Shown here piece after piece: positions 3,480-63,851 of a stretch of 64,000 nt of DNA. The position numbers and the translations under genes were made by a program. Within the stretch, counting starts at the first letter, position 1, and every line of letters starts with the position of its first letter. The notes under the pieces were generated by a model. The model saw only the letters and a list, made by a program, of their open reading frames with translations. It was not told the DNA's origin and searched no databases. Source of the stretch: an uncultured Flavobacteriales bacterium (lineage in GTDB: Bacteria; Bacteroidota; Bacteroidia; Flavobacteriales; UBA1820); the NCBI GenBank assembly GCA_902478645.1, contig CABSLV010000004.1, positions 24,411 to 88,410 on the forward strand, given 5' to 3'.

Positions 3480-6400
3480 ATGAATAAAATCGCCCGGAGG
3501 GCGTCCATATGGCTGACTGGTCTGTTGCTGCTCGTAGCCTTGGCAGCGGGCAGCCTGTTGCTTTCGCCGGTGCAGAGCTTCCTGGGAAGAAAAGCCGCGG
3601 AACTCCTCTCGCAGCACATCCCCCAGCAGGCGAGCATCGGGCGGATCGACATCCGACCGTCTGGACGGATCTTCCTTTCGGACATCCGGGTGCTGGACCA
3701 CCGGGGAGATACCCTGATCGCCATCGACTCGGTCCGGGCACGGATAAAGCGGAGCTCGCTGTGGACCGGCCGCCTGGCCTTCCGGCAAGCCGACCTATAC
3801 GGCCCGAAAGTGCGGGTGATCAAATATCCCGGGGAGGAGCGCTCCTCCCTCGCACTGTTTCTGGAGCACCTCAAGGGCGAAAAGAAAAGACCTTTTTATC
3901 TGGACATCGCCCGTGTCCGTTTGCTCTCGGGGGAGTTTTCCTTCCGGGACGATGAAAAAGGGCAGCACGAGGCCGTACAAAACCTGTCTTTGGGCGTGTC
4001 CGGGTTGTCGATCGCCCCGGGCGACTACCGCGCTACGCTCGACTCCCTGCAGGCGCAAGGCCGCGACGGGAGCCGGATCCGCCATCTCTCGGGAGAATTC
4101 CGCTTTGCCCCCCGGGGGATCATCGCCGACGGGGTAAAACTGCTCACCGAATACAGCGACCTGTCGTTTTCGGCTTCCGCGTACCTGCCCGAGAAAGACT
4201 CCACGGGGCAGACCTTCGGGCAACGCCTGCGCCAGGGAGAGTTTTCCCTATCTGTCGATTCCTCGCACATCGACCCGCGCGACGTCCGGCCGTTTTACCC
4301 CCGGGCGGAAGGGATCCCTCCCCTCGAACTCGCGGCCCACATCGTGGCACAAAAGGGTCTTCTGGATGTAAAAAATCTCGACTTGTCGGTCGGCGATCTG
4401 CTCTCTGCCGACCTCTCCGGCCGGATAGACGCCCCGACTTCGCTGCGGGAAGGCAGCGGAAACATCGTGCTGAAAAATCTCCGGATACTGCCCGGGGAGG
4501 CCCTCGCCGTGGCCAAACGAGCCGCCGGTGGAAAACTCTCCGGAAAGGCCCTCGACAAACTCTCCTCGGTGGCCTACCTTTCGGGAAGCGGGCTGCTCAC
4601 CTTGGAAAAAGGGAACGTAACTTCCGTCGTTTCGCTCACCACCCGTCAGCACGGGCGGATCTTCCTGCGCGGACAGTCCACCGACCTGTGGAATCGGAAA
4701 AATGCCCGCTATACGGCGCGCGCAGTGCTGGAAAACGTCAATGCCGGCCTGCTCACCGGTTCGGAGAGCCTGGGGAAAACCACCCTCTTTGCCGACATCC
4801 GGGGACGGGGTTTCCAACCGGACAACGCGACGGTAGAACTCCGTTCGTCGATCCCGCTGCTGGAATTCCGGCAATATCCCTACTCCGGCATCTCCCTGCA
4901 AGCCGACCTGAAAGGCGGAGTACTGGCCGTCGAGACGACGGTAAACGACCCGAATCTGGCTGCCAAGGTCTCCACCCGGGTGGAACGGGGTGCGGAAAAA
5001 GGCTCGCTGCACACCTATCTGGACATGTACCTGGACCAGAGCGACCTTCACGCCCTGGGACTGGTGCAGGACAGCATCGTCAACCTGCGCGGTACGATCC
5101 AGGCGGAACTCATCGGTTCGGGACCGGACGACGTGCTGGGAACGGTCGATCTCTCGGAGATGAGCTACAACAACGGCAACAACTACTACTACATCGACCG
5201 GATCCGCATCGCCTCCGAACAGATCGACAGTCTTTCCCGCCGCCTTTCGATCGAATCCGAAGACTTGTTCAGCGGACACATCCAGGGCAACTATCTCCTT
5301 TCCCAAGTCCCCGCTGCAGTGGCCAACGGGCTGCTCTCGGGCTTCAAAGCCTACCGGAAAAAGGAAGTAACCCCCGGACAGCAATACGACTTCCAGTTCA
5401 ACATCACGGCCTCGAACGTAAAGATCGTCAATACCCCCCTGATCTTCGACGGACGTACGCACTTCGGCGGACGGGTCGATACTTCGGGCGATGATTTCTC
5501 CCTCGAGATCCTGGCCGACCGGATCAACTACCGGGACATCCTGGTCGATACGCTCCAGATGCGCCTCAACACCGCCCTGGCCAACGTGCTGACCCTCCAG
5601 GCCGACAAATTCATCAACCCGGTGTACAGCATCGAAGGCTTGGACTTCTCCGCACTGCGCTACGCGGACAGCCTGGCCATCCGCAGCGACTTTCACAAGT
5701 GGAACAGCGCGGACAGCATTGCTTTCCACCTCAACGCCTACCAGAAGGACGACGCGCAGGGGAACATCATCGTGGGTTTCCTCCCCTCACGGATCGATCT
5801 GGAACACCTCGGTTGGCGTTTCGGCAGCCAGGGGATCCCCGGACGCGACCGCGTCGTATGGAACGTGAACAGCGGCGAAGTACGCATCGATTCGATCGAG
5901 ATGACCTCCGGGGAGGCGATGATCGGCGCCGGGGGATTCTACACCCCGCGCGATTCGATGGACCTGCGGCTGGAGGTCCGTTCGCTCGACCTTTCACGAA
6001 CGGTATTCCTGCGCAACAATGTCCCGCTGGAAGGCAACCTCAACGGGCTTCTCCACCTCTCCCGGGTCGATGCCCAGGCTACGGTCATCCCGGAAGCCTC
6101 CCTGCGCATCGATTCGCTGGCCATCGGGACGAGCCGCATCGGCAACTTCGATCTGTCGGTAGTGGCCGACCTGGGGAAAGGCTACGTGAGTACCTCCGCC
6201 CACCTGATCCACGGAGCGAGGGAAGCTCTGGCGCTTTCCGGCGGATTAAGGATCGAGGAGCGAAGCCTGACCCCCGAGATAGACATTTCGCTGGACAGCC
6301 TGCCGGTCGATGCGGTGCATTACCTGCTGCCTACGGTTTTCAACCGATCGAGCGGTTACGCCTCGGCCCGGCTCGAAATGCGCGGGCGGTTGCGACAACC

Positions 6401-29316: not shown

Positions 29317-30156
29317 CTACTTCGCCTTTTCGGCCATCTCCCGGAAATAATTGTCGAAGAAGACCAAATGATACTTTACCGAATTGGTCCAATACGACCA
29401 GCTGTGGCTCCCCGGACGGGAGATGAAATCGTGATCGATCCGGCGGTATCTCATCAACTCGTGCAAACGTTCGTTCACCGGATAGAAAGAATCGCTCGTC
29501 CCGCAGTCGAACAGGATCTTCAGACTGCCGGGTTTGAGCAGATACAACTGGTTCATGATGCTGTACTGTGCCCACCGCTCGGGATACTCCGCCTGTGAAC
29601 CCAACTTTTTTTCCATGTTTTCATTGGCCGGGAACGACTGTATGTCCAGTCCTCCGCTCATCGAGGCGCAGGCACCATAAAGATCCTGATGGCGGAACGA
29701 CAGGTAAAATGCACCCTGTCCGCCCATCGAGAGTCCCGTAATGCCACGCCCCTCCCGCGAGGCGATCGTACGGTAATGCTGGTCGATGTAGGGCAGCAGT
29801 TCGCGCGTCATGTAGGTCTCGTACCGGCTGGTGGAGTCAGCCGGAGCGTCCCAGTACCAGCTGTAAGGATTTCCGTCGGGACAAACGATGATCATGCCGT
29901 AACGCGAGGCGAGTTCCGGCAGGAAAGGCGCTTTCTTGATCCAGTTGGTATAGTCGCCCGTAGCACCGTGCAACAGATACACCACCGGAAAACGGGCGTC
30001 CTTGTCCGTTTGATACGCAGCCGGAGTAATGACCACGTTCTTGATGTTCTTCTTCATCGAAGCGCTCCACACGGCGACCGTGTCCACCGATTGCGCTTCC
30101 GCTGCGCCGCAAAGCACTGCAGCCAGGATAACAAAAAGCGATTTGAAGTGTTTCAT
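29317..30156 (-). CDS. Secreted esterase (putative esterase/CE1-like alpha/beta hydrolase)
   Basis: Signal peptide MKHFKSLFVILAAVLCGAAEAQ, VVYLLHG and the GLSMGG nucleophile elbow. Start trimmed to 30156. Confidence 0.75.
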   Translation of the reverse strand: MKHFKSLFVILAAVLCGAAEAQSVDTVAVWSASMKKNIKNVVITPAAYQTDKDARFPVVYLLHGATGDYTNWIKKAPFLPELASRYGMIIVCPDGNPYSWYWDAPADSTSRYETYMTRELLPYIDQHYRTIASREGRGITGLSMGGQGAFYLSFRHQDLYGACASMSGGLDIQSFPANENMEKKLGSQAEYPERWAQYSIMNQLYLLKPGSLKILFDCGTSDSFYPVNERLHELMRYRRIDHDFISRPGSHSWSYWTNSVKYHLVFFDNYFREMAEKAK

Positions 30157-30493
30157 TGTATATGTCCCTATTTTTTGATACGATCCTCTCTTTCCTACCG
30201 GCCGGAAAACTGTTTTTCCCTTCGAAAACACCAGGCTTGAAGAACACCACCGGCTCACGCAAACCCGAAAAACAAAAGTAACGAATTCCTCCCAAAAAGC
30301 CTGCCCATTCTTCTCAATTTCGACAAATCCACCCTCCTATCGTCCAACCGCCACATCCGGATTCCTCCAAACATTCGATGCGCGCAACCCTCTCCTGCAT
30401 GGATTCAGACAGCTTTTTTTCTTACAAAAGGAAAAAACACAAAAACATTTTGCCATTTCAATTAAAATACACAACTTGCAGACATACAAAAAG

Positions 30494-30658
30494 ATGAATC
30501 CATATCAATTATTCCCCAATATTTATTTTATCATGAAAACAAGCGCAAAACTCCTGCGAAGGATTTCCTATTCCCCTCCTACGGCCACACTGGTCGAGGT
30601 AACCGTCGAGAGAGGCTTTGCCGTCTCTCTGCCGGATGACACTGTCAATCCTTGGTAA
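30494..30658 (+). CDS. Micro-ORF 1 (54 aa), paralog of micro-ORF 2
   Basis: MNPYQLFPNIYFIMKTSAKLLRRISYSPPTATLVEVTVERGFAVSLPDDTVNPW. The last 27 aa plus stop are identical to micro-ORF 2 despite 7 nucleotide differences, all synonymous. The track ORF starts at an upstream TTG (30476). Confidence 0.55.
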   Translation: MNPYQLFPNIYFIMKTSAKLLRRISYSPPTATLVEVTVERGFAVSLPDDTVNPW

Positions 30659-30689
30659 AATTGCACACACCTCCACGAACACGATAAAA

Positions 30690-30843
30690 AAACGTCCGTT
30701 TATTATGGCAAAGATATAATAAAATATCTTAAAGTAGCTAAAATTGCATTAAAATTAGCGACAAGCAAGTATGGACATTGTTTTGTCGTTTTGTTTTTGG
30801 AAAGCCCCCCATGTTTATTCTTATCCGAAATAAACGGACGTTT
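30690..30843. promoter_or_regulatory. Candidate invertible promoter (inverton): perfect 15-bp inverted repeats flanking a 124-bp AT-rich segment
   Basis: IR-L is aaacgtccgtttatt (30690-30704). IR-R is aataaacggacgttt (30829-30843). They are exact reverse complements. The internal segment carries a consensus -7 box TATCTTTG on the minus strand (30709-30716). That box points away from the downstream genes in this assembly. Confidence 0.5.
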
Positions 30844-30851
30844 AACCCATC

Positions 30852-31016
30852 ATGTCTAATAACCCTTACACTAAATTTGTCATGCAACACAAACATCTAA
30901 CTTTCCGACACAACAAAATCGAGACTTACACTCCTCCGACCGCCACACTGGTCGAAGTAACAGTCGAGAGAGGCTTTGCCGTCTCGCTGCCGGACGACAC
31001 GGTCAATCCTTGGTAA
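30852..31016 (+). CDS. Micro-ORF 2 (54 aa), paralog of micro-ORF 1
   Basis: Hand translated; it is below the track length cut-off. MSNNPYTKFVMQHKHLTFRHNKIETYTPPTATLVEVTVERGFAVSLPDDTVNPW. An in-frame TAA lies 2 codons upstream of the ATG. The stop is 19 nt before the lipoprotein ATG. Confidence 0.6.
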   Translation: MSNNPYTKFVMQHKHLTFRHNKIETYTPPTATLVEVTVERGFAVSLPDDTVNPW

Positions 31017-31035
31017 CCCTTATCCCACGAACACG

Positions 31036-34000
31036 ATGAAAAAACTATGCTTTCTGTTGAGTCTGGCTACGATCGTCGGACTCGGCTCCTGCTCGCGGGA
31101 TTTCAGCGAGACCGATCCTACTCCCTCGGCACAGGGAACCCACTCCCTGAAAGCCTCCATCGCGCAAAGCGAACCCACCACCCGCACCGGCTTGGGCGAC
31201 AAAGACGAAGAAAACGGTACAACGCCCTTGTTGTGGGTAGCAGGTGACAAAATCGCCGTAGTCGACGACGCAGAACCCAATACCGTACACCAGTACATCC
31301 TCGACCCTGCTGCCGCCGGACAGACCGAAGGCACGTTTACCGTCAGCGAAGGGGATGGCGTCCAGGGCGCTGCTTCCATCACGGCGTACTACCCTTATAC
31401 GTTCTATTCGGCTTCGCAGGGGTTGTCCGTGCCCGCCACCCAACAGTACAAGGAGGGACGGACGATGGAAACCGACATGCTCCCCATGTACGCCCATTCT
31501 TCCGGGGCGGAAGTGGGCGAGTTGGACTTCCATCCCGTTGCCGGGCTGATCAACCTGCAACTGACCAAAAACGACAAACTGAACGAAAGCCGTCTGTTCT
31601 ACTCCGTCAAACTGGTTTCCTCCGAGGATAACCTCGCCGGGAAAGGTTCCCTCGCCGACGACAGCGAAGGATACAAGGTGCTGACCATCGACGGGGACGA
31701 TGCCTCGAAAGAGATCACCTTCTCTTTGGGCGAAAGCGGTTTAGCCCTCAAGGAAGGCGAAATCACCTCCCTAATGTTCGTCGTACCGGCCAAAACGTAT
31801 AGTGCCTCCACGTTGAAGTTCGTCCTCACGTACAAAAACAGCCCGGACGATGCCGACTTCCAGACCATCGACCTACCCGTCCGCTCGGCGGTAGAAGTAC
31901 AGCGCGGACATATCGTCAATTTTGCAGCCACCGATGTCGGCCTGTTGATTTCAGGCATCGCTCCTGAAGAGGTAAAAGAAGTCATTACCGACGCAGCCAC
32001 CTCCGGTGAGTCCGAGATCCCGCAAGTGATCGAAGTGGTGGGCATGGATGCCGGCGGGGAATATACCATCGAGCTCCCCACGGTGTACAATGAAACGAAA
32101 AATCAGGAAACCATCTCGTTGGTAGCTACCGACGTTGCGGCCGGAGCTACCATCCTTGTGCAGGAGACTGCCGCCACGGGGATCGCTCCCCAGCAGTATG
32201 TGAGCCTCGCCAATGCCACCGACAACTCCTGCAACGTAGCCGTCGAACTGCCCAACTCGACCGTCACCCTCGACGGCACGTTCGACAACGTGGAAGCTAC
32301 CACCGCCGACCAGACGCTCATCATCCCCTCGGGGACCGTCGTGCAGAACCTGACGGTCAAACAAGGCTCGGTCAAGATCTACGGTACGGTCAAGAACCTG
32401 ACTACCGCCTCCGGCTGGAGCGGAGAGATCGTTCGCGGGATTTCCTCCCAGGAATGCTTCGACAAAGCCATGGAAAACGACGCCTCGATCAACTATACGT
32501 TCGACTACGCTCTGATCGACCGCCCCATCCCGAACCTCGACGGAAAGGGAAAAACGCTGGCGCTCCCGCTGAAAGTCTCGGCCGACGCAACCATTTCCAA
32601 CCTCACCATCCGTCCTTCGGAGTCCATCGAGGCCAACGGCATCACCATCCTTCAGGACAGCGTCGATCTGTCGCTCAACGGAGTGGACATCTACGTTTCC
32701 TCCAACAACTCCTCCGCCGGGCTGAACACCGGACTGCTGATCGCCGAAGTGAACAACGTTACGGCCACCTTGAAGGATTGCCACATCGTCGTGCCCAAGA
32801 GCTACCAGCGCGGTATCAACATGCATAGCGCAAAAACCGCCGGTACGACCACCGTTACCCTGGACAACACCCACATCGGACCTACGCTCGAACCCCTGAC
32901 CACGGATTACAGCCACGACACCTACACCCAGGAACAGATCGACGCGTTCAAAGCCCGCGTGGACAGCCGGGGTGTCAGCTTCGGCGGACCGCACAGCGCC
33001 CGCTACGTGCTGAACCTGCGGAACGGTTCGGTGATCGAAGGAGTATTCTACGCCATCAACTTCACGTACTACGCCGCTCCGGTAGAGATCAACGTGGATC
33101 GTTCGATCATCGACGGTCGCTGCGCCTTCAACATCTGGGCCAACGGCGAAGGAACGAAGATCAACGTAACGAACGGCTCGAAACTGGTGGGACGCAACTA
33201 CTTCCCCGGTCCGACAGAGGTTTATGCCAATATCGTCATCGAAAGCAAAGCCAACGGACAGGCAGCCGAGAACAACGTCATCACCGTGCGCGACAGCGAA
33301 TTCCACTGCTTCAACGAACCGCAAACCAATACCAACTGGCAATACGCGCTCGATGTCCGCTCCGAAGGGGTCAACACCATCCAGCTGCTGGGTGAGACCA
33401 AGATATACGACCACAGCGGACGCCTTCCCCATGCCATCGATGTCGGAGGCTGGAGCAACCAGTTTGTCATCGACCCGAGCGTATCCTTCGCCATGGGCAT
33501 GGAAGGAGCGACCATCCTGCCGACACACATCTGGGACGGTTCTTCGTTCAAATTCCCCGGGAAAGCCCTGGACGGCAAATACTACATCGGCGAGCCTTCC
33601 CAGCTGGCCGCACTCACCCTGCAGGTCCCCGAAGGGATGGACATCGTCCTGGTACGCGACCTGGACCTGAACAACCATCCTTGGCTGGCCAAATATCCCA
33701 CTTCCGGCACTAAAGCCAATACGGTGGACGGCGGCGGCCATACCATCTACAACCTCAACACCGGTACGGTCGGATGGGATACCAAGACGGAATGTCCGGG
33801 ACTGTTCTCGGCCTTTGCCGGTACGATCAAGGATCTCACGATAGAGAATGCTACCGTGTACGGTTCCCGGGCAGGTGCTCTCGCCGGCCGACTGGACTAC
33901 GGCACGATCACCAATTGCCACGTGAAGAACGTTACCTTTATCGGAGGAGCACAAAAGATGGCTGGCTTGATCGGCTTTATCAACGGAAACGGTGACATCG

Positions 34001-34440
34001 TTCTGGACGGTTGCTCGGTCGACGGATGCCTGATAGTCAACGACCCTGCCCCGAAAGGCGACGATGGTGCTGCCATAACCGGCGATGCATCGTGCATGGC
34101 CGGAGGATTGGTCGGATTCATCCAGTCTTTCAACCACAAGGTGGACATCCGGAATTGTTCCGTGAAAAACACGACTGTGCAGAGCGGTCTGCTTTGGGAC
34201 AACTATTCGGGATGCACTTCGCACGAATTCATCGGCAACATCGCCAACACCTACAAATACCCCAATGCGGTGTTTACGCTGACCAACAACACCATTGAAG
34301 GTTCCTCGTGCGATGCAAAAGTCCGCATGAACGACTATTTCGGATTCTGCTATACGGGCGAATCCGGACAGACCGATCCTTACGCCCGGGTAGTGGTCGA
34401 CGGAGAGGTTATCACCGAAGGCCCGGCCGCCGGCGAATAA
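31036..34440 (+). CDS. Large surface lipoprotein: fimbrillin-like N-domain, beta-helix-like middle, C-terminal GLUG repeats
   Basis: Lipobox MKKLCFLLSLATIVGLGSC. N-domain pattern WVAGDKIAVV...TAYYPY...LDFHPVAGLINLQL, typical of Bacteroidales fimbrillin/Mfa-like lipoproteins. C-terminal repeats AGALAGRL, MAGLIGFI and MAGGLVGFI...IRNCSV match the GLUG motif. Start trimmed from 30976 to 31036. Confidence 0.8.
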   Translation: MKKLCFLLSLATIVGLGSCSRDFSETDPTPSAQGTHSLKASIAQSEPTTRTGLGDKDEENGTTPLLWVAGDKIAVVDDAEPNTVHQYILDPAAAGQTEGTFTVSEGDGVQGAASITAYYPYTFYSASQGLSVPATQQYKEGRTMETDMLPMYAHSSGAEVGELDFHPVAGLINLQLTKNDKLNESRLFYSVKLVSSEDNLAGKGSLADDSEGYKVLTIDGDDASKEITFSLGESGLALKEGEITSLMFVVPAKTYSASTLKFVLTYKNSPDDADFQTIDLPVRSAVEVQRGHIVNFAATDVGLLISGIAPEEVKEVITDAATSGESEIPQVIEVVGMDAGGEYTIELPTVYNETKNQETISLVATDVAAGATILVQETAATGIAPQQYVSLANATDNSCNVAVELPNSTVTLDGTFDNVEATTADQTLIIPSGTVVQNLTVKQGSVKIYGTVKNLTTASGWSGEIVRGISSQECFDKAMENDASINYTFDYALIDRPIPNLDGKGKTLALPLKVSADATISNLTIRPSESIEANGITILQDSVDLSLNGVDIYVSSNNSSAGLNTGLLIAEVNNVTATLKDCHIVVPKSYQRGINMHSAKTAGTTTVTLDNTHIGPTLEPLTTDYSHDTYTQEQIDAFKARVDSRGVSFGGPHSARYVLNLRNGSVIEGVFYAINFTYYAAPVEINVDRSIIDGRCAFNIWANGEGTKINVTNGSKLVGRNYFPGPTEVYANIVIESKANGQAAENNVITVRDSEFHCFNEPQTNTNWQYALDVRSEGVNTIQLLGETKIYDHSGRLPHAIDVGGWSNQFVIDPSVSFAMGMEGATILPTHIWDGSSFKFPGKALDGKYYIGEPSQLAALTLQVPEGMDIVLVRDLDLNNHPWLAKYPTSGTKANTVDGGGHTIYNLNTGTVGWDTKTECPGLFSAFAGTIKDLTIENATVYGSRAGALAGRLDYGTITNCHVKNVTFIGGAQKMAGLIGFINGNGDIVLDGCSVDGCLIVNDPAPKGDDGAAITGDASCMAGGLVGFIQSFNHKVDIRNCSVKNTTVQSGLLWDNYSGCTSHEFIGNIANTYKYPNAVFTLTNNTIEGSSCDAKVRMNDYFGFCYTGESGQTDPYARVVVDGEVITEGPAAGE

Positions 34441-34506: not shown

Positions 34507-34551
34507 GCACAAAAAAAGCCTTGCAACCCTTTCGCTGCAAGGCCTTGTCCG

Positions 34552-34636
34552 TACTCGGGATGGGACTCGAACCCACACGGACATTTCTGTCCAAAGGATT
34601 TTAAGTCCTTCGTGTCTACCATTTCACCACCCGAGC
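34552..34636 (-). tRNA. tRNA-Leu (anticodon UAA)
   Basis: Minus strand GCTCGGGTGGTGAAATGGTAGACACGAAGGACTTAAAATCCTTTGGACAGAAATGTCCGTGTGGGTTCGAGTCCCATCCCGAGTA. Cloverleaf with a long variable arm and anticodon loop CTTAAAA. A TACCTTTG -7 box lies at 34662-34669 on the minus strand. Confidence 0.92.
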
Positions 34637-34809
34637 ATCCGCCCGGAAAAAACGAGCAGGGCAAAGGTAAAGATTTTTTGCCATTTCGCCGTTATCCGAA
34701 TGCTCTTCTCCGAAGCCATTCGCACAAAAGCACAGAAAATCAAGAGAAAAAGGATATCCATCCGGATTCTTTTCAGTAGATTTGTACATTCTAGTAACAC
34801 TTCCCTGCC

Positions 34810-35853
34810 ATGATACGAAAGATCACATTCCCTGTCCTTGCCTTGGGCGGCTTGCTATTCATCCTTCTGTCCGGGTTCGCCCCTTTTCCTCAAAACGAAC
34901 AGAGCGAAGCAACGACCTCGGAGATCGCTCCGGAAGAAGACTCCACCGTATCCGTCATTGCCTGGTTTTGCAAAGGAGACACGATGACCTACTGGATCCA
35001 TGACGGTCAGTGGAAAGTCGTCGGAGGGGATACGATCCAAACTCTCGGCGTCCACACCAAGGTGATGCTCACCGTAACAGATTCCTCTTCGAAAGGCTAC
35101 GCGCTGGAATACCGTTTTTTGGAATTCGACTTTGACCCGATCGAAGGTTCCGAGACCCAAAACATCGTGAATCTCGCCGCAAGCCAGCTCCAGAAAGACA
35201 TCGTGGGTACCGTCATCCGATTCCACACCGATGAAGTAGGGCAGATCACAAAATACGAAAACCTCAAAGAAGTCAAAAAACAGGCCAAGGACCTTTTTTC
35301 CAATTTCGTACAGCAAATGCCGTACATCGACTCTTTGGCGGCAGACGGGATAAAGATAGAACCACTGCTCAAAAAGATCGGTTCCAGCGACCTGCTGATA
35401 GACGGATACGTCGAGGAACTCGAGATGCTCTTCCGATGCCATGGGAACCAATACCCCATCGGGGAATTCACCGAGCATCAGGATGCCACAGAGACGGAAT
35501 ACGCCTCCGACACGTATATGGCGGTAGGGATGGATCCGGAAACCTACGAATACGACCTCCGGATCGACGTCGACAACTACATCCCGAAAGAAGACCTCAA
35601 AAGCCTTGTCGGTGACTTGGCCGACCTGTTGCTGGACAAGGACGCAGCGCAGGAGGCCAAGAAGGAAATCGCGACCGAATTCGACCAACAGATCCAGAAC
35701 GATGCGGTGTACGGCTCCTATCTGCACGCAAAATACTTCCCCGACGGATGGCCCGAAGACATCATTTATCAGGAGAAAACCTTACTGGAGGGACAAGGAA
35801 AACTGACGCAGAAATACATCACGTGGGATTACCGGAGCGTGGGCAATTTTTAA
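34810..35853 (+). CDS. Hypothetical membrane-anchored/secreted protein
   Basis: 347 aa, N-terminal hydrophobic anchor, acidic soluble body. No family recognised. A TAGATTTG -7 box lies at 34777-34784. Confidence 0.6.
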   Translation: MIRKITFPVLALGGLLFILLSGFAPFPQNEQSEATTSEIAPEEDSTVSVIAWFCKGDTMTYWIHDGQWKVVGGDTIQTLGVHTKVMLTVTDSSSKGYALEYRFLEFDFDPIEGSETQNIVNLAASQLQKDIVGTVIRFHTDEVGQITKYENLKEVKKQAKDLFSNFVQQMPYIDSLAADGIKIEPLLKKIGSSDLLIDGYVEELEMLFRCHGNQYPIGEFTEHQDATETEYASDTYMAVGMDPETYEYDLRIDVDNYIPKEDLKSLVGDLADLLLDKDAAQEAKKEIATEFDQQIQNDAVYGSYLHAKYFPDGWPEDIIYQEKTLLEGQGKLTQKYITWDYRSVGNF

Positions 35854-35998
35854 CATTCAAGCCCCGCCCGGGCAAACATTCTACCTGAGGCTTTGGGAAA
35901 ACCACGGCTTATGACCGGTTGCACCATCCTTATACCTTTCGAAAAGAAAGAGATGAGAGAAAGCTACCGCACATCCCCCCTCTAAAAAACATAAACCC

Positions 35999-62002: not shown

Positions 62003-62911
62003 ATGAAAGACTTCAATTCATTAATAGAGTTATTCATAGCTTTCCCGGATGAACAAAGTTGCATTAATCATTTGGAACGACTTCGTTGGAATGGAATTGT
62101 TGTTAGTCCATTTGATCCTACATCGAAAGTCTATAAATGCAAATATAACAAATATAGATGCAAAAACACAGGGAAATATTTCAATGTCAAGACGAATACT
62201 CTTTTTGATAGCTCAAAAATTGAACTAAGAAAGTGGTTTGCTGCTATATGGCTTGTTACATCCCACAAAAAAGGTATTTCCTCTTTACAGTTAAGTAGAG
62301 ATATAGATGTAACACAGAAGACAGCATGGTTTATGCTTCAACGTATTCGTAATTGTTTTGGAATAGAAAACAACGATAAACTTAGCAACACCGTTGAAGT
62401 TGATGAAACCTATATAGGAGGAAAAAACAAGAATAGACACACTAACAAGAGAGTAACAGGTTCACAAGGGCGCAGCGTAAAAGACAAATCACCTGTTCTT
62501 GGAATGGTGGAGCGAAAAGGGAAACTTGTAGCAAAAGTTGTGAAGAATACAAGCGGAGGTATATTAACTCCACAGATCATTAATTTTGTTAAAGATGCTC
62601 TTATATATACCGATGAATGGTGGGGATACAATTCTATCAAAAAGTTGTTCAAACACAGCTATGTCAATCACCGATCTAATGAATATGTAAGAGGAGATGT
62701 ATATACAAATACTATTGAAGGTTTTTGGTCGATTCTAAAACGAGGAATTATAGGTATCTACCACTTTACATCAAAACAACACTTGCAACGTTACGTGGAT
62801 GAGTTTGTTTTCAGATACAACACAAGAAAACATACGGATGGAGAGAGATTTAATCTTCTGATCAGAAACAATGAACATCGTTTAACTTATAAAGAATTGA
62901 TATATGGATAA
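62003..62911 (+). mobile_element. IS1595-family (ISXO2-like) transposase gene
   Basis: 302 aa. The N-terminal zinc-ribbon region (CINHLERLRWNG...YKCKYNKYRCKN...) is followed by a DDE_Tnp_IS1595-like core (VEVDETYIGGK...IYTDEWWGYN...NTIEGFWSILKR). Very AT-rich relative to the backbone. TATATTTG box at 61975-61982. IS ends not identified. Confidence 0.8.
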
Positions 62912-63851
62912 TAGAGTAAGAAATCGTGGAGAGTTGGATTTAGCAGGGATAAAAATACCTTGTTATGTTCTTGAAGATGGAACAAGAGTATTGTCAGGAA
63001 GAGGAATGCAAGAAGCTCTAAATATGGTTGATGATAATGGAAAAACATCGGGCCATAGGATATTGAGATATTTGAGTCAAAAAACACTTAAACCATTTAT
63101 TTTCAAGGATAAAGGGTTGGGCCACTTTAATCCATTAACTTGTTATGATGGAAATAAGAAAATAAACGGTTATGAGGCTACCGTATTAGTTGATATATGT
63201 GATGCTTTTTTAGAGGCAAGAAAACACATAAAACTATCATCAAGGCAGGCTATTATTGCTGACCAATGTGAAATACTCGTTAGGGCGTTTGCTCGATTAG
63301 GTATAATCGCCCTTGTCGATGAGGCAACAGGATACCAAAATGAAAGGGAGCATCTTGAACTTCAAAAGATATTAAGTGCATATATATCCGATGAAATTCT
63401 AAAATGGCAACTTACATTTACGGATGATTTCTATCGCGAGATATATCGCTTATGGGGACTTCCTTTTATTCCTAAATATATTCGACAAAAGCCTTCATTT
63501 ATTGGGAAGCTTACACGTAAATATATATATGAAGAATTACCTAAAGGTGTGGTCGAAAAGATACAAGAAAAAGTAGAGAAAACTGAAAAAGGAAACTGGA
63601 AATACAAGTGGCACCAAACCCTTACCCCAGAAATTGGTCGAGAACATTTGAAACGTCAAATTATTGAGGTTACAACACTGATGTCAATATCTCAATCAAA
63701 GGAACAGTTTGATGCTTTATTCCAACAAAAGTATCATAAGGTTGTACAACTGGAAATGGAGTTCAATGAAGTAGTTGAAGAGCCTAAAACATATGATTTC
63801 GATACAAAATTGATGATTGCATTATCATCCAATCCCCATAGAAAGGAATAA
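62904..63851 (+). CDS. P63C-domain protein
   Basis: 315 aa. The pattern IPCYVLEDGTRVLSGRGMQEAL...GYEATVLVDICDAFLEAR...IIALVDEATGYQ...FYREIYRLWG is typical of phage/Bro-associated P63C domain proteins (from memory). 8-nt overlap (ATGGATAA) with the transposase gene. Confidence 0.7.
   Translation: MDNRVRNRGELDLAGIKIPCYVLEDGTRVLSGRGMQEALNMVDDNGKTSGHRILRYLSQKTLKPFIFKDKGLGHFNPLTCYDGNKKINGYEATVLVDICDAFLEARKHIKLSSRQAIIADQCEILVRAFARLGIIALVDEATGYQNEREHLELQKILSAYISDEILKWQLTFTDDFYREIYRLWGLPFIPKYIRQKPSFIGKLTRKYIYEELPKGVVEKIQEKVEKTEKGNWKYKWHQTLTPEIGREHLKRQIIEVTTLMSISQSKEQFDALFQQKYHKVVQLEMEFNEVVEEPKTYDFDTKLMIALSSNPHRKE

Follow-up and report, generated by a model that had tools for sequence, protein, structure and literature searches.

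Why would a bacterium keep two short open reading frames (ORFs) with almost the same ending, one behind the other, directly ahead of a large gene for a predicted surface lipoprotein? The question is raised by a stretch of 64,000 nucleotides (nt), hereafter called the window, from an uncultured Flavobacteriales bacterium (assembly GCA_902478645.1, contig CABSLV010000004.1, positions 24,411 to 88,410; all coordinates below are those of the window unless a locus is named). A first-pass annotation of this DNA had described the two ORFs and their common C-terminal part but overlooked that the locus is organised by a predicted invertible promoter situated between them. The locus is best read as an inverton-controlled surface-lipoprotein operon with a new conserved leader micro-cistron, which appears to have been duplicated around the switch by modular recombination. 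We are highly confident of the locus anatomy taken by itself; the complete reading, which combines a phase-variable operon, the joining of modules and a leader peptide acting in cis, is assigned a probability of approx. 0.5.

Two leader copies on either side of a predicted invertible promoter

The shared ending of the two ORFs is an 84-nt direct repeat (30575-30658 and 30933-31016; 92% identical), of which no third copy was found within the 64-kilobase (kb) window. As the first-pass annotation had recognised, the two copies differ at seven positions, all of them third codon positions and all synonymous. Nei-Gojobori counting gives 7 changes at 22.3 synonymous sites and 0 at 58.7 non-synonymous sites, which corresponds to a synonymous divergence (dS) of 0.41 and a non-synonymous divergence (dN) of 0. 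The chance that seven of seven changes fall at third positions is about (1/3)^7 = 5e-4, and the neutral chance that all seven are synonymous is about (22.3/81)^7 = 1e-4. Relatives of the locus were taken from public assemblies (labelled L001-L029; homologous proteins are labelled P0006, P0008 and P0009). Across 44 copies of the block, representing 16 haplotypes from approx. 30 related assemblies, 15 of the 21 variable sites are at the third position, and the few replacements comprise R/K and T/V polymorphism, the x of Y-x-PP, and single changes of P to L and V to L. In particular, when copy 1 is followed across 18 loci, nine codons within PPT..NPW vary synonymously and one non-synonymously. 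Against L010, the most distant lineage, dN is 0.15 for the block versus 0.43 for the lipoprotein. The last 29 residues of the micro-ORF are under strong purifying selection, and both ORFs behave as coding sequence, as had been proposed.

The length of 54 codons given earlier to both ORFs (30494-30658 and 30852-31016) is a coincidence, because the upstream ATG codons on which it depends are not conserved among relatives: the ATG at 30852 is replaced by AAG, AAA or AAC, and the region upstream of ORF1 contains no Met in L001-L006. The conserved starts are inner Met codons, on which gene callers and public homologs agree. Micro-ORF 1 thus occupies 30533..30658 on the plus strand (41 codons and TAA; MKTSAKLLRRISYSPPTATLVEVTVERGFAVSLPDDTVNPW), with a start that, unlike 30494, is conserved, and its 29-codon block (Y-x-PPTATLVEVTVERGFAVSLPDDTVNPW) lies at 30569..30655 (+). 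Micro-ORF 2 occupies 30882..31016 (+; 44 codons and TAA; MQHKHLTFRHNKIETYTPPTATLVEVTVERGFAVSLPDDTVNPW), with the second copy of the block at 30927..31013 (+) and a stop codon 19 nt ahead of the lipoprotein ATG. The homology of the two copies does not end with the reading frames. It continues approx. 30 nt past the stop codons into a 21-nt repeat, CCACGAACACGAT[A/G]AAAAAAC, found at 30673-30693 and 31025-31045, the downstream copy of which holds the ATG of the lipoprotein gene. The upstream copy (30673..30693, +; CCACGAACACGATAAAAAAAC) is a vestigial lipoprotein-gene start region, in which ATG has become ATA at 30684-30686 in the window and is retained in L001-L008. The duplicated unit is therefore a whole leader module, consisting of block, spacer and start codon of the large gene, and not a free-standing gene.

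Between the copies lies the invertible segment (inverton) of 154 base pairs (bp; 30690..30843). It is bounded by a left inverted-repeat arm on the plus strand (30690..30714), with a perfect core at 30690-30704 (AAACGTCCGTTTATT, half-sites AAACG-TC-CGTTT), and a right arm on the minus strand (30819..30843), with its perfect core at 30829-30843. The 25-nt arms are 84% complementary and share the 15-nt perfect core (two exact copies, against 0.45 expected at ≤2 mismatches), which is a palindrome with an asymmetric central dinucleotide; crossover is presumed to take place within it. Both orientations of the segment are found in nature. The inner 104 bp agree with the window at 103 of 104 positions in forward orientation in L001-L004 and, equally well, as the reverse complement in L005 and L006. 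In the pairs L004/L005 and L003/L006, the complete 154-bp segment is 100% identical yet flipped, within flanks that are ~99% identical. Among loci from independent assemblies with a recognisable inner segment, 11 are oriented as in the window (left) and 10 to the right. Moreover, assemblies often break at the switch: in L008, a run of N fills exactly the stretch from one core to the other, and the contig of L009 ends inside the segment. The inverton and the ORF2 leader are nearly invariant across genetic backgrounds (2 single-nucleotide polymorphisms and 1 indel in 154 bp among 20 loci), unlike the lipoprotein gene, for which dS between the same strains reaches 0.16-0.26.

The segment carries a promoter -7 box, TATCTTTG, at 30709..30716 on the minus strand, which is a perfect match to the Bacteroidota motif TAnnTTTG and is accompanied by an approximate -33 element. 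The window contains 37 instances of the motif, where 16 would be expected, and most of them immediately precede genes. The box is kept as TATATTTG in the diverged inverton of L018 and as TATCTTTA in L010, the most distant lineage. Because the box reads leftward in the window, away from the lipoprotein gene, the window state is predicted to be OFF for the lipoprotein operon. Inversion of the segment would move the box to 30817-30824 (+), ~57 nt ahead of the ORF2 ATG, and would toggle the promoter between reading into micro-ORF 2 and the lipoprotein gene (ON) and reading leftward (OFF).

Single loci show further variation at the switch. In L020 (~1310), a leftward locus, the left core carries a 1-nt deletion (GTCCG to GTCG), which may represent either a locked switch or a sequencing error. 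In L018 (2950-2975), the right inverted-repeat arm carries other sequence in place of its right half-site (AAACGGAC followed by ATATT), and a wholly different leader and N-terminus (MHEKHQLSQDSRIGYYI) begins at the replaced half-site; a breakpoint at the presumed crossover site hints at recombinase-mediated exchange of modules. In L013, the inverton promoter, in OFF orientation, is only ~150 nt from the start of the esterase gene. In OFF orientation the promoter points toward divergent esterase and Asp-Al_Ex transporter genes, and the switch might toggle two outputs.

The lipoprotein gene, the ORF2 leader and the ORF1 module

The gene downstream of the switch (31036..34440, +) encodes a predicted surface lipoprotein of 1134 amino acids (aa) with a GLUG motif. 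Its product begins with a signal peptide and a lipobox (MKKLCFLLSLATIVGLGSC, Cys19) followed by acidic residues, an arrangement that we take to suggest export to the cell surface. It had been called fimbrillin-like, a label that could not be confirmed, since a Pfam search returned the GLUG motif only and NCBIfam gave no match. A profile search against PDB gave only a weak galectin-like match. In the AlphaFold model, residues 1-306 are unreliable (predicted local distance difference test, pLDDT, below 50 for the N-terminal domain) and the C-terminal 800 aa are predicted to be rich in β structure; a fold search with the protein returned only weak matches, which tentatively point to a parallel β-helix.

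The association of the micro-ORFs with this gene, also suggested previously, is confirmed by conserved synteny. In syntenic relatives, the order is esterase gene, 41-aa ORF, 44-aa ORF and a gene of ~1137 aa, and the distance between the micro-ORF stop and the lipoprotein ATG is 19-30 nt in all lineages. The micro-ORF of P0008 lies 30 nt upstream of a lipoprotein ortholog that is only 51% identical. The core unit is thus the inverton, the micro-ORF and the 1134-aa lipoprotein gene, and it persists even at this degree of lipoprotein divergence. At L015, a locus with a distant lipoprotein homolog and DUF6562 genes, no related micro-ORF was found. Neither a terminator nor a promoter was found between the micro-ORF and the lipoprotein gene, the single terminator-like match being at chance level, and a scan with a sigma-70 promoter model, which is not applicable here, was empty; micro-ORF 2 and the lipoprotein gene are likely co-transcribed. 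Comparison of the peptide with the lipoprotein revealed no similarity between them. In L029 (1658-3135), where the switch is oriented leftward, the lipoprotein gene is split into ORFs of 460 and 659 aa, which may reflect pseudogenisation.

The 89-nt leader at 30844..30932 (+) joins the predicted 5' untranslated region of the ON state to the opening 17 codons of ORF2. In 23 loci it varies only at 30853-30855, the very spot of the ATG that the first-pass annotation had chosen at 30852, and its variability is below even that of synonymous sites in the adjoining block. Such invariance suggests either constraint at the nucleotide level or a recent spread of the module. The leader is C-rich and G-poor (26 C, 6 G; C/G 4.3), a composition that ranks at the 99.9th percentile for the window. 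At 30872-30879 (+), 2 nt ahead of the ORF2 ATG, it contains a perfect TAnnTTTG box (TAAATTTG); the L001-type ORF1 has a similar arrangement (TATTTTTA-TC-ATG), and the box is absent from the leaders of N-terminal types D and E. If this box were a promoter, transcripts would begin at or just after the ATG and would bypass ORF2.

ORF1 belongs to an add-on module of ~340 bp (30345..30684, +), which is present in the window and in L001-L006. The module is absent from L013, L014 and L018, in which the esterase upstream region abuts the left inverted repeat directly. At its right end, the module finishes with the vestigial lipoprotein start and adjoins the left inverted repeat; the junction sequence found there, T[G/A]AAAAAAC, recurs in the flank of the left repeat and where the lipoprotein gene begins. 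The UBA1820-type lineage has, at the corresponding place, another ORF1 module (N-terminal type C), whose upstream neighbour is also a different gene, and this ORF1 has its own perfect TATATTTG box upstream. A module consisting of inverton and leader was probably joined, at the start codon, to a second leader module that lacked the switch and lay upstream, through recombination at the TGAAAAAAC that both have in common; this joining would have left two leader cistrons in tandem. In two independent assemblies, L007 and L019, a type-C N-terminus is fused to the tail of copy 2 directly before the lipoprotein gene, and the switch is missing; either the direct repeats recombined and the DNA between them was lost, or the assemblies collapsed across a run of 38 identical nt. 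In L006, copy 1 almost matches the window's copy 2. The copies thus appear to exchange synonymous variants, and the 84-nt direct repeats could recombine again. At the left boundary of the module, a 16-nt fragment (TCGTCCAACCGCCACA, 30340-30355) is 88% like the start of the block; it may derive from an earlier copy or resemble the block by chance.

These observations bear on the proposal that only ORF2 is functional and that ORF1 is left over from the recombination event by which the switch was installed. On this view, ORF1 looks constrained because it served as a leader until a short time ago and because it is refreshed by gene conversion from ORF2 and by recombination between strains. Loss of the module without apparent consequence in L013 and L018, decay of its lipoprotein start codon to ATA in the window and the exchange of variants between copies all agree with a relic, as does the restriction of private non-synonymous changes (P to L, V to L) to copy 1; in addition, no exact consensus promoter precedes ORF1 in the window. 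However, copy 1 has at least five synonymous variants that were not seen in copy 2 (GGA, ACT, CCT, ACG and GAA), only 1-2 replacements were found in it (18 loci, 8 haplotypes), and its start, frame and stop are intact in 18 of 18 loci. The perfect TATATTTG box ahead of type-C ORF1 also speaks against a relic. This proposal has some support but is considered unlikely.

A narrow peptide family and its possible role

The peptide family is very narrow: it was found in 2 of 185,579 species genomes (Flavobacteriales bacterium UBA1820 and Candidatus Merdimorpha stercoravium) and at four further metagenome loci. It is common in gut assemblies, in which one variant was present on 408 contigs. There is one peptide locus per genome, and the peptide is always found together with the lipoprotein gene or its switch. 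A phmmer search that covered 1.84 billion representatives exhaustively returned only the family itself, one diverged member (P0008, MYQKPAKSHPNGGARYNPPTVTLIEVSVERGFAATLPDDHANPW), which carries conservative substitutions, and one weak match to a strand motif. The latter is P0009, a giant repeat protein of 6979 aa, in which TL(T)EVTADRSYAVS(I/F)P recurs every ~318 residues and resembles the block (E 3e-4); this likeness probably reflects a generic strand pattern and is a coincidence rather than homology. The family had not been recognised from the sequence at first sight, and it indeed has no match in Pfam, NCBIfam, PDB sequence profiles or Rfam for either peptide, nor does any of these sources name it.

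The division into a variable N-terminus and an invariant C-terminus extends well beyond the two copies in which it was first noticed. Five unrelated N-terminal types were found, each with 12-16 residues ahead of the invariant Tyr; all are polar, basic and rich in K, R and H, and the total length of the peptide is kept at 41-45 residues. Between the window and L001, the first 14 codons of ORF1 (30533-30574 and 6001-6042, respectively) are identical at only 27 of 42 positions with no indel, between flanks of 86-96% identity; this segment is a short divergence hotspot in which most of the changes alter amino acids. Read from the sequences, none of the five types contains a hydrophobic signal segment, so the earlier idea of a small secreted peptide is unlikely.

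A tentative best guess for the role of the peptide is that of a regulatory leader acting in cis. According to this proposal, translation of the micro-ORF would cover the C-rich, G-poor leader, whose composition resembles that of Rho-loading sites, and the 29 conserved C-terminal residues, a stretch roughly as long as the exit tunnel of the ribosome, would work as a nascent chain once the NPW-stop is reached. This chain, possibly by pausing, would then determine read-through of transcription, or re-initiation at the ATG of the lipoprotein gene, which follows after 19 nt. The constraint evidently acts on amino acids and not on RNA, because dN/dS between the copies is 0/0.41, changes are concentrated at third positions, and neither RNA folding (z = -0.84 for ORF2 with the lipoprotein start) nor Rfam gave a signal. 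An explanation of the conservation in terms of RNA structure was rejected on the grounds of that fold score and the empty Rfam search. A scan of the locus for an intrinsic terminator that could serve as an attenuator also found none. Further hints of a role in cis are the invariance and composition of the 89-nt leader, the uninterrupted passage from the micro-ORF to the lipoprotein gene and the lack of a predicted fold for the isolated peptide.

Alternatively, the peptide may be a small cytoplasmic protein that acts in trans, in which a basic tail and an acidic, β-hairpin-like block bind a partner. The candidates include the pre-lipoprotein, a regulator that coordinates other surface loci, and the invertase, for which the peptide would be a directionality or feedback factor; ORF1 would then supply the peptide constitutively, and ORF2 only in the ON phase. 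This possibility is itself far from established but is considered nearly as likely as a cis-acting leader. The constraint on peptide sequence rather than RNA suits it well. It would account for copy 1, which is intact and varies mostly synonymously though it is separated from the lipoprotein gene, and for the K/R/H-rich composition kept across five unrelated N-termini. The block is, moreover, strand-like and weakly resembles the repeated strand motif of the giant repeat protein. On the other hand, AlphaFold predicts no secondary structure for the peptide alone and no confident fold (pLDDT 66), no partner was identified, the peptide shares no similarity with the lipoprotein itself, and a family confined to 2 of 185,579 species genomes, at one locus per genome, is always tied to the lipoprotein gene or the switch.

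Several points weigh against the combined reading of switch, joined modules and cis-acting leader. A role in cis leaves the integrity of ORF1 unexplained, since ORF1 does not adjoin the lipoprotein gene; its conservation may stem from a recent join together with gene conversion. Non-synonymous variants that are private to copy 1 do occur, with P to L found in L024 and V to L in P0006. The block, in which hydrophobic and polar residues alternate as in a β-strand, would suit a binding peptide equally well. The Rho utilization (rut)-like character of the leader is suggested by its base composition, and the ON and OFF states are assigned from a promoter motif. An exact TAnnTTTG promoter was not found for ORF1 of the window (N-terminal type B). 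L007 and L019 could be assembly collapses across the 38-nt identical run. Finally, no recombinase gene was detected in the window by crude serine- and tyrosine-recombinase motif scans or by Pfam analysis of the neighbours; the absence of a local recombinase fits a distant master invertase, as for Mpi.

The surroundings of the operon bear on a further alternative, namely that the peptide is the precursor of a ribosomally synthesized and post-translationally modified peptide (RiPP) or similar secreted product, or a donor-strand-like partner that completes the fold of the lipoprotein outside the cell. The region next to the tRNA-Leu gene (34551-34636, -) is variable (34551-35995): the window contains a 347-aa ORF (34810-35853) that could not be annotated, L001-L006 and L013 have a radical S-adenosylmethionine (SAM) gene in its place, and L008 has both. 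The presence of a radical SAM gene downstream of the lipoprotein gene in several relatives would fit a modified product, and small peptides of which one half is invariant and strand-like would fit either variant of the idea. However, in these relatives the radical SAM gene lies beyond the opposite-strand tRNA-Leu, and it is absent from all 64 kb of the window, in which the peptides are intact; this argues against a modified-peptide pathway. The architecture, with a variable N-terminus and an invariant C-terminus, is also the reverse of that of a typical precursor, and no signal peptide, double-glycine motif or nearby transporter was found. The RiPP idea was therefore rejected, and a precursor with a C-terminal recognition element, as proposed in the first-pass annotation, is left with no enzyme partner. 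The lipoprotein matches no fimbrillin family in Pfam or NCBIfam. Taken together, these products are regarded as very improbable.

On the other side, the intergenic region begins with a TAnnTTTG -7 box (TACTTTTG, 30273..30280, -) upstream of the divergent esterase gene (29317-30156, -; Esterase in Pfam). Near the end of the window, a segment of low GC content (62003-63851; 0.34 versus ~0.58) carries an IS1595-family transposase gene (DDE_Tnp_IS1595) and a P63C-domain gene and is probably a recently acquired mobile element.

Known switches, known leaders and the meaning of the locus

The switch is of a type that is already known; the leader micro-cistron and its duplication are new. It resembles the Mpi-type promoters that gut Bacteroides use at capsular polysaccharide and other surface loci. 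As quoted in PMC8375218, the inverted-repeat consensus for Mpi, a serine invertase of Bacteroides fragilis, is ARACGTTCGTN, with which AAACGTCCGT agrees at 9 of 10 positions; GTCCGTTTAT agrees at 8 of 10 with the repeat of the Bacteroides intestinalis capsule inverton, GTTCGTTTAA, given in the same paper. In both systems, a short segment is bounded by inverted repeats (154 bp here, 183-186 bp at the B. intestinalis capsular polysaccharide loci). They also have in common a TAnnTTTG box inside the segment, the occurrence of both orientations in nature, and a surface molecule as output. Unlike Mpi-type promoters, the present switch resides in an uncultured gut Flavobacteriales lineage (UBA1820/Candidatus Merdimorpha), and the first cistron downstream is a 44-codon micro-ORF instead of upxY/upxZ. 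Furthermore, the output is a single lipoprotein gene, no invertase gene was found in the window, and a duplicated leader module flanks the switch. The fimS element, which controls type 1 fimbriae of Escherichia coli, is likewise an invertible promoter that turns a surface adhesin structure ON and OFF; unlike the locus described here, it has 9-bp inverted repeats, a 314-bp element, adjacent genes for the tyrosine recombinases FimB and FimE, and no leader micro-ORF.

Invertons of Bacteroidales surface-protein and fimbrial operons are, as far as is known, driven by nearby tyrosine recombinases, and we know of no conserved leader micro-ORF described for them. The phase-variable Mfa1 fimbriae of Phocaeicola vulgatus are one example of inverton control (PMC12940148). 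In such operons, as in those for outer surface proteins of B. fragilis and at the present locus, promoter inversion gates a gene for a large surface lipoprotein or an adhesin-like protein. Here, in contrast, no recombinase was detected nearby, and the lipoprotein could not be placed in a fimbrillin family.

The leader itself can be compared with TnaC, of the E. coli tna operon, and SpeFL, of speF, two leader peptides that exert their regulatory effect while still nascent, when the ribosome has arrived at the stop codon of the leader ORF. As in these systems, a short ORF (24-44 codons) lies directly upstream of the gene that would be regulated, and it is the peptide rather than the RNA that is conserved. 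The conserved part is approximately as long as the exit tunnel, and the neighbouring sequence is rich in C and poor in G, like that of Rho loading sites. Unlike TnaC and SpeFL, with which it has no sequence similarity, the micro-ORF described here is combined with a DNA switch and is present in two tandem copies; stalling and Rho dependence would apply to it by analogy. A bolder extension, which we consider improbable, is that the micro-ORF is the first nascent-peptide regulator (by ribosome arrest or Rho antitermination) described in Bacteroidota and is coupled in series to the inversion switch. One surface lipoprotein would then be gated by two layers together, a stochastic ON/OFF layer in the DNA and a conditional layer at translation, which might sense a ligand. 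The two leader blocks would also act as direct repeats, between which homologous deletion would take out the switch and leave the gene permanently under one promoter; L007 and L019 may be cases of this.

Gut Bacteroidota vary their surface mainly by promoter inversion, but little attention has been paid to the interval that separates an inverted promoter from the first large gene behind it. At this locus, that interval contains a nearly frozen tail of 29 residues, which accompanies a phase-variable lipoprotein gene across lineages down to 51% lipoprotein identity and has been duplicated around the switch. The direct repeats on either side of the switch can yield variants that lack it. Moreover, conserved micro-ORFs and assembly breaks beside surface-protein genes can serve to flag invertons in uncultured organisms. 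If the peptide does regulate expression, the locus would offer a compact and testable model, in which a leader of ~200 bp is enough for reporter assays, and would add a second layer of control on top of inverton-based phase variation.

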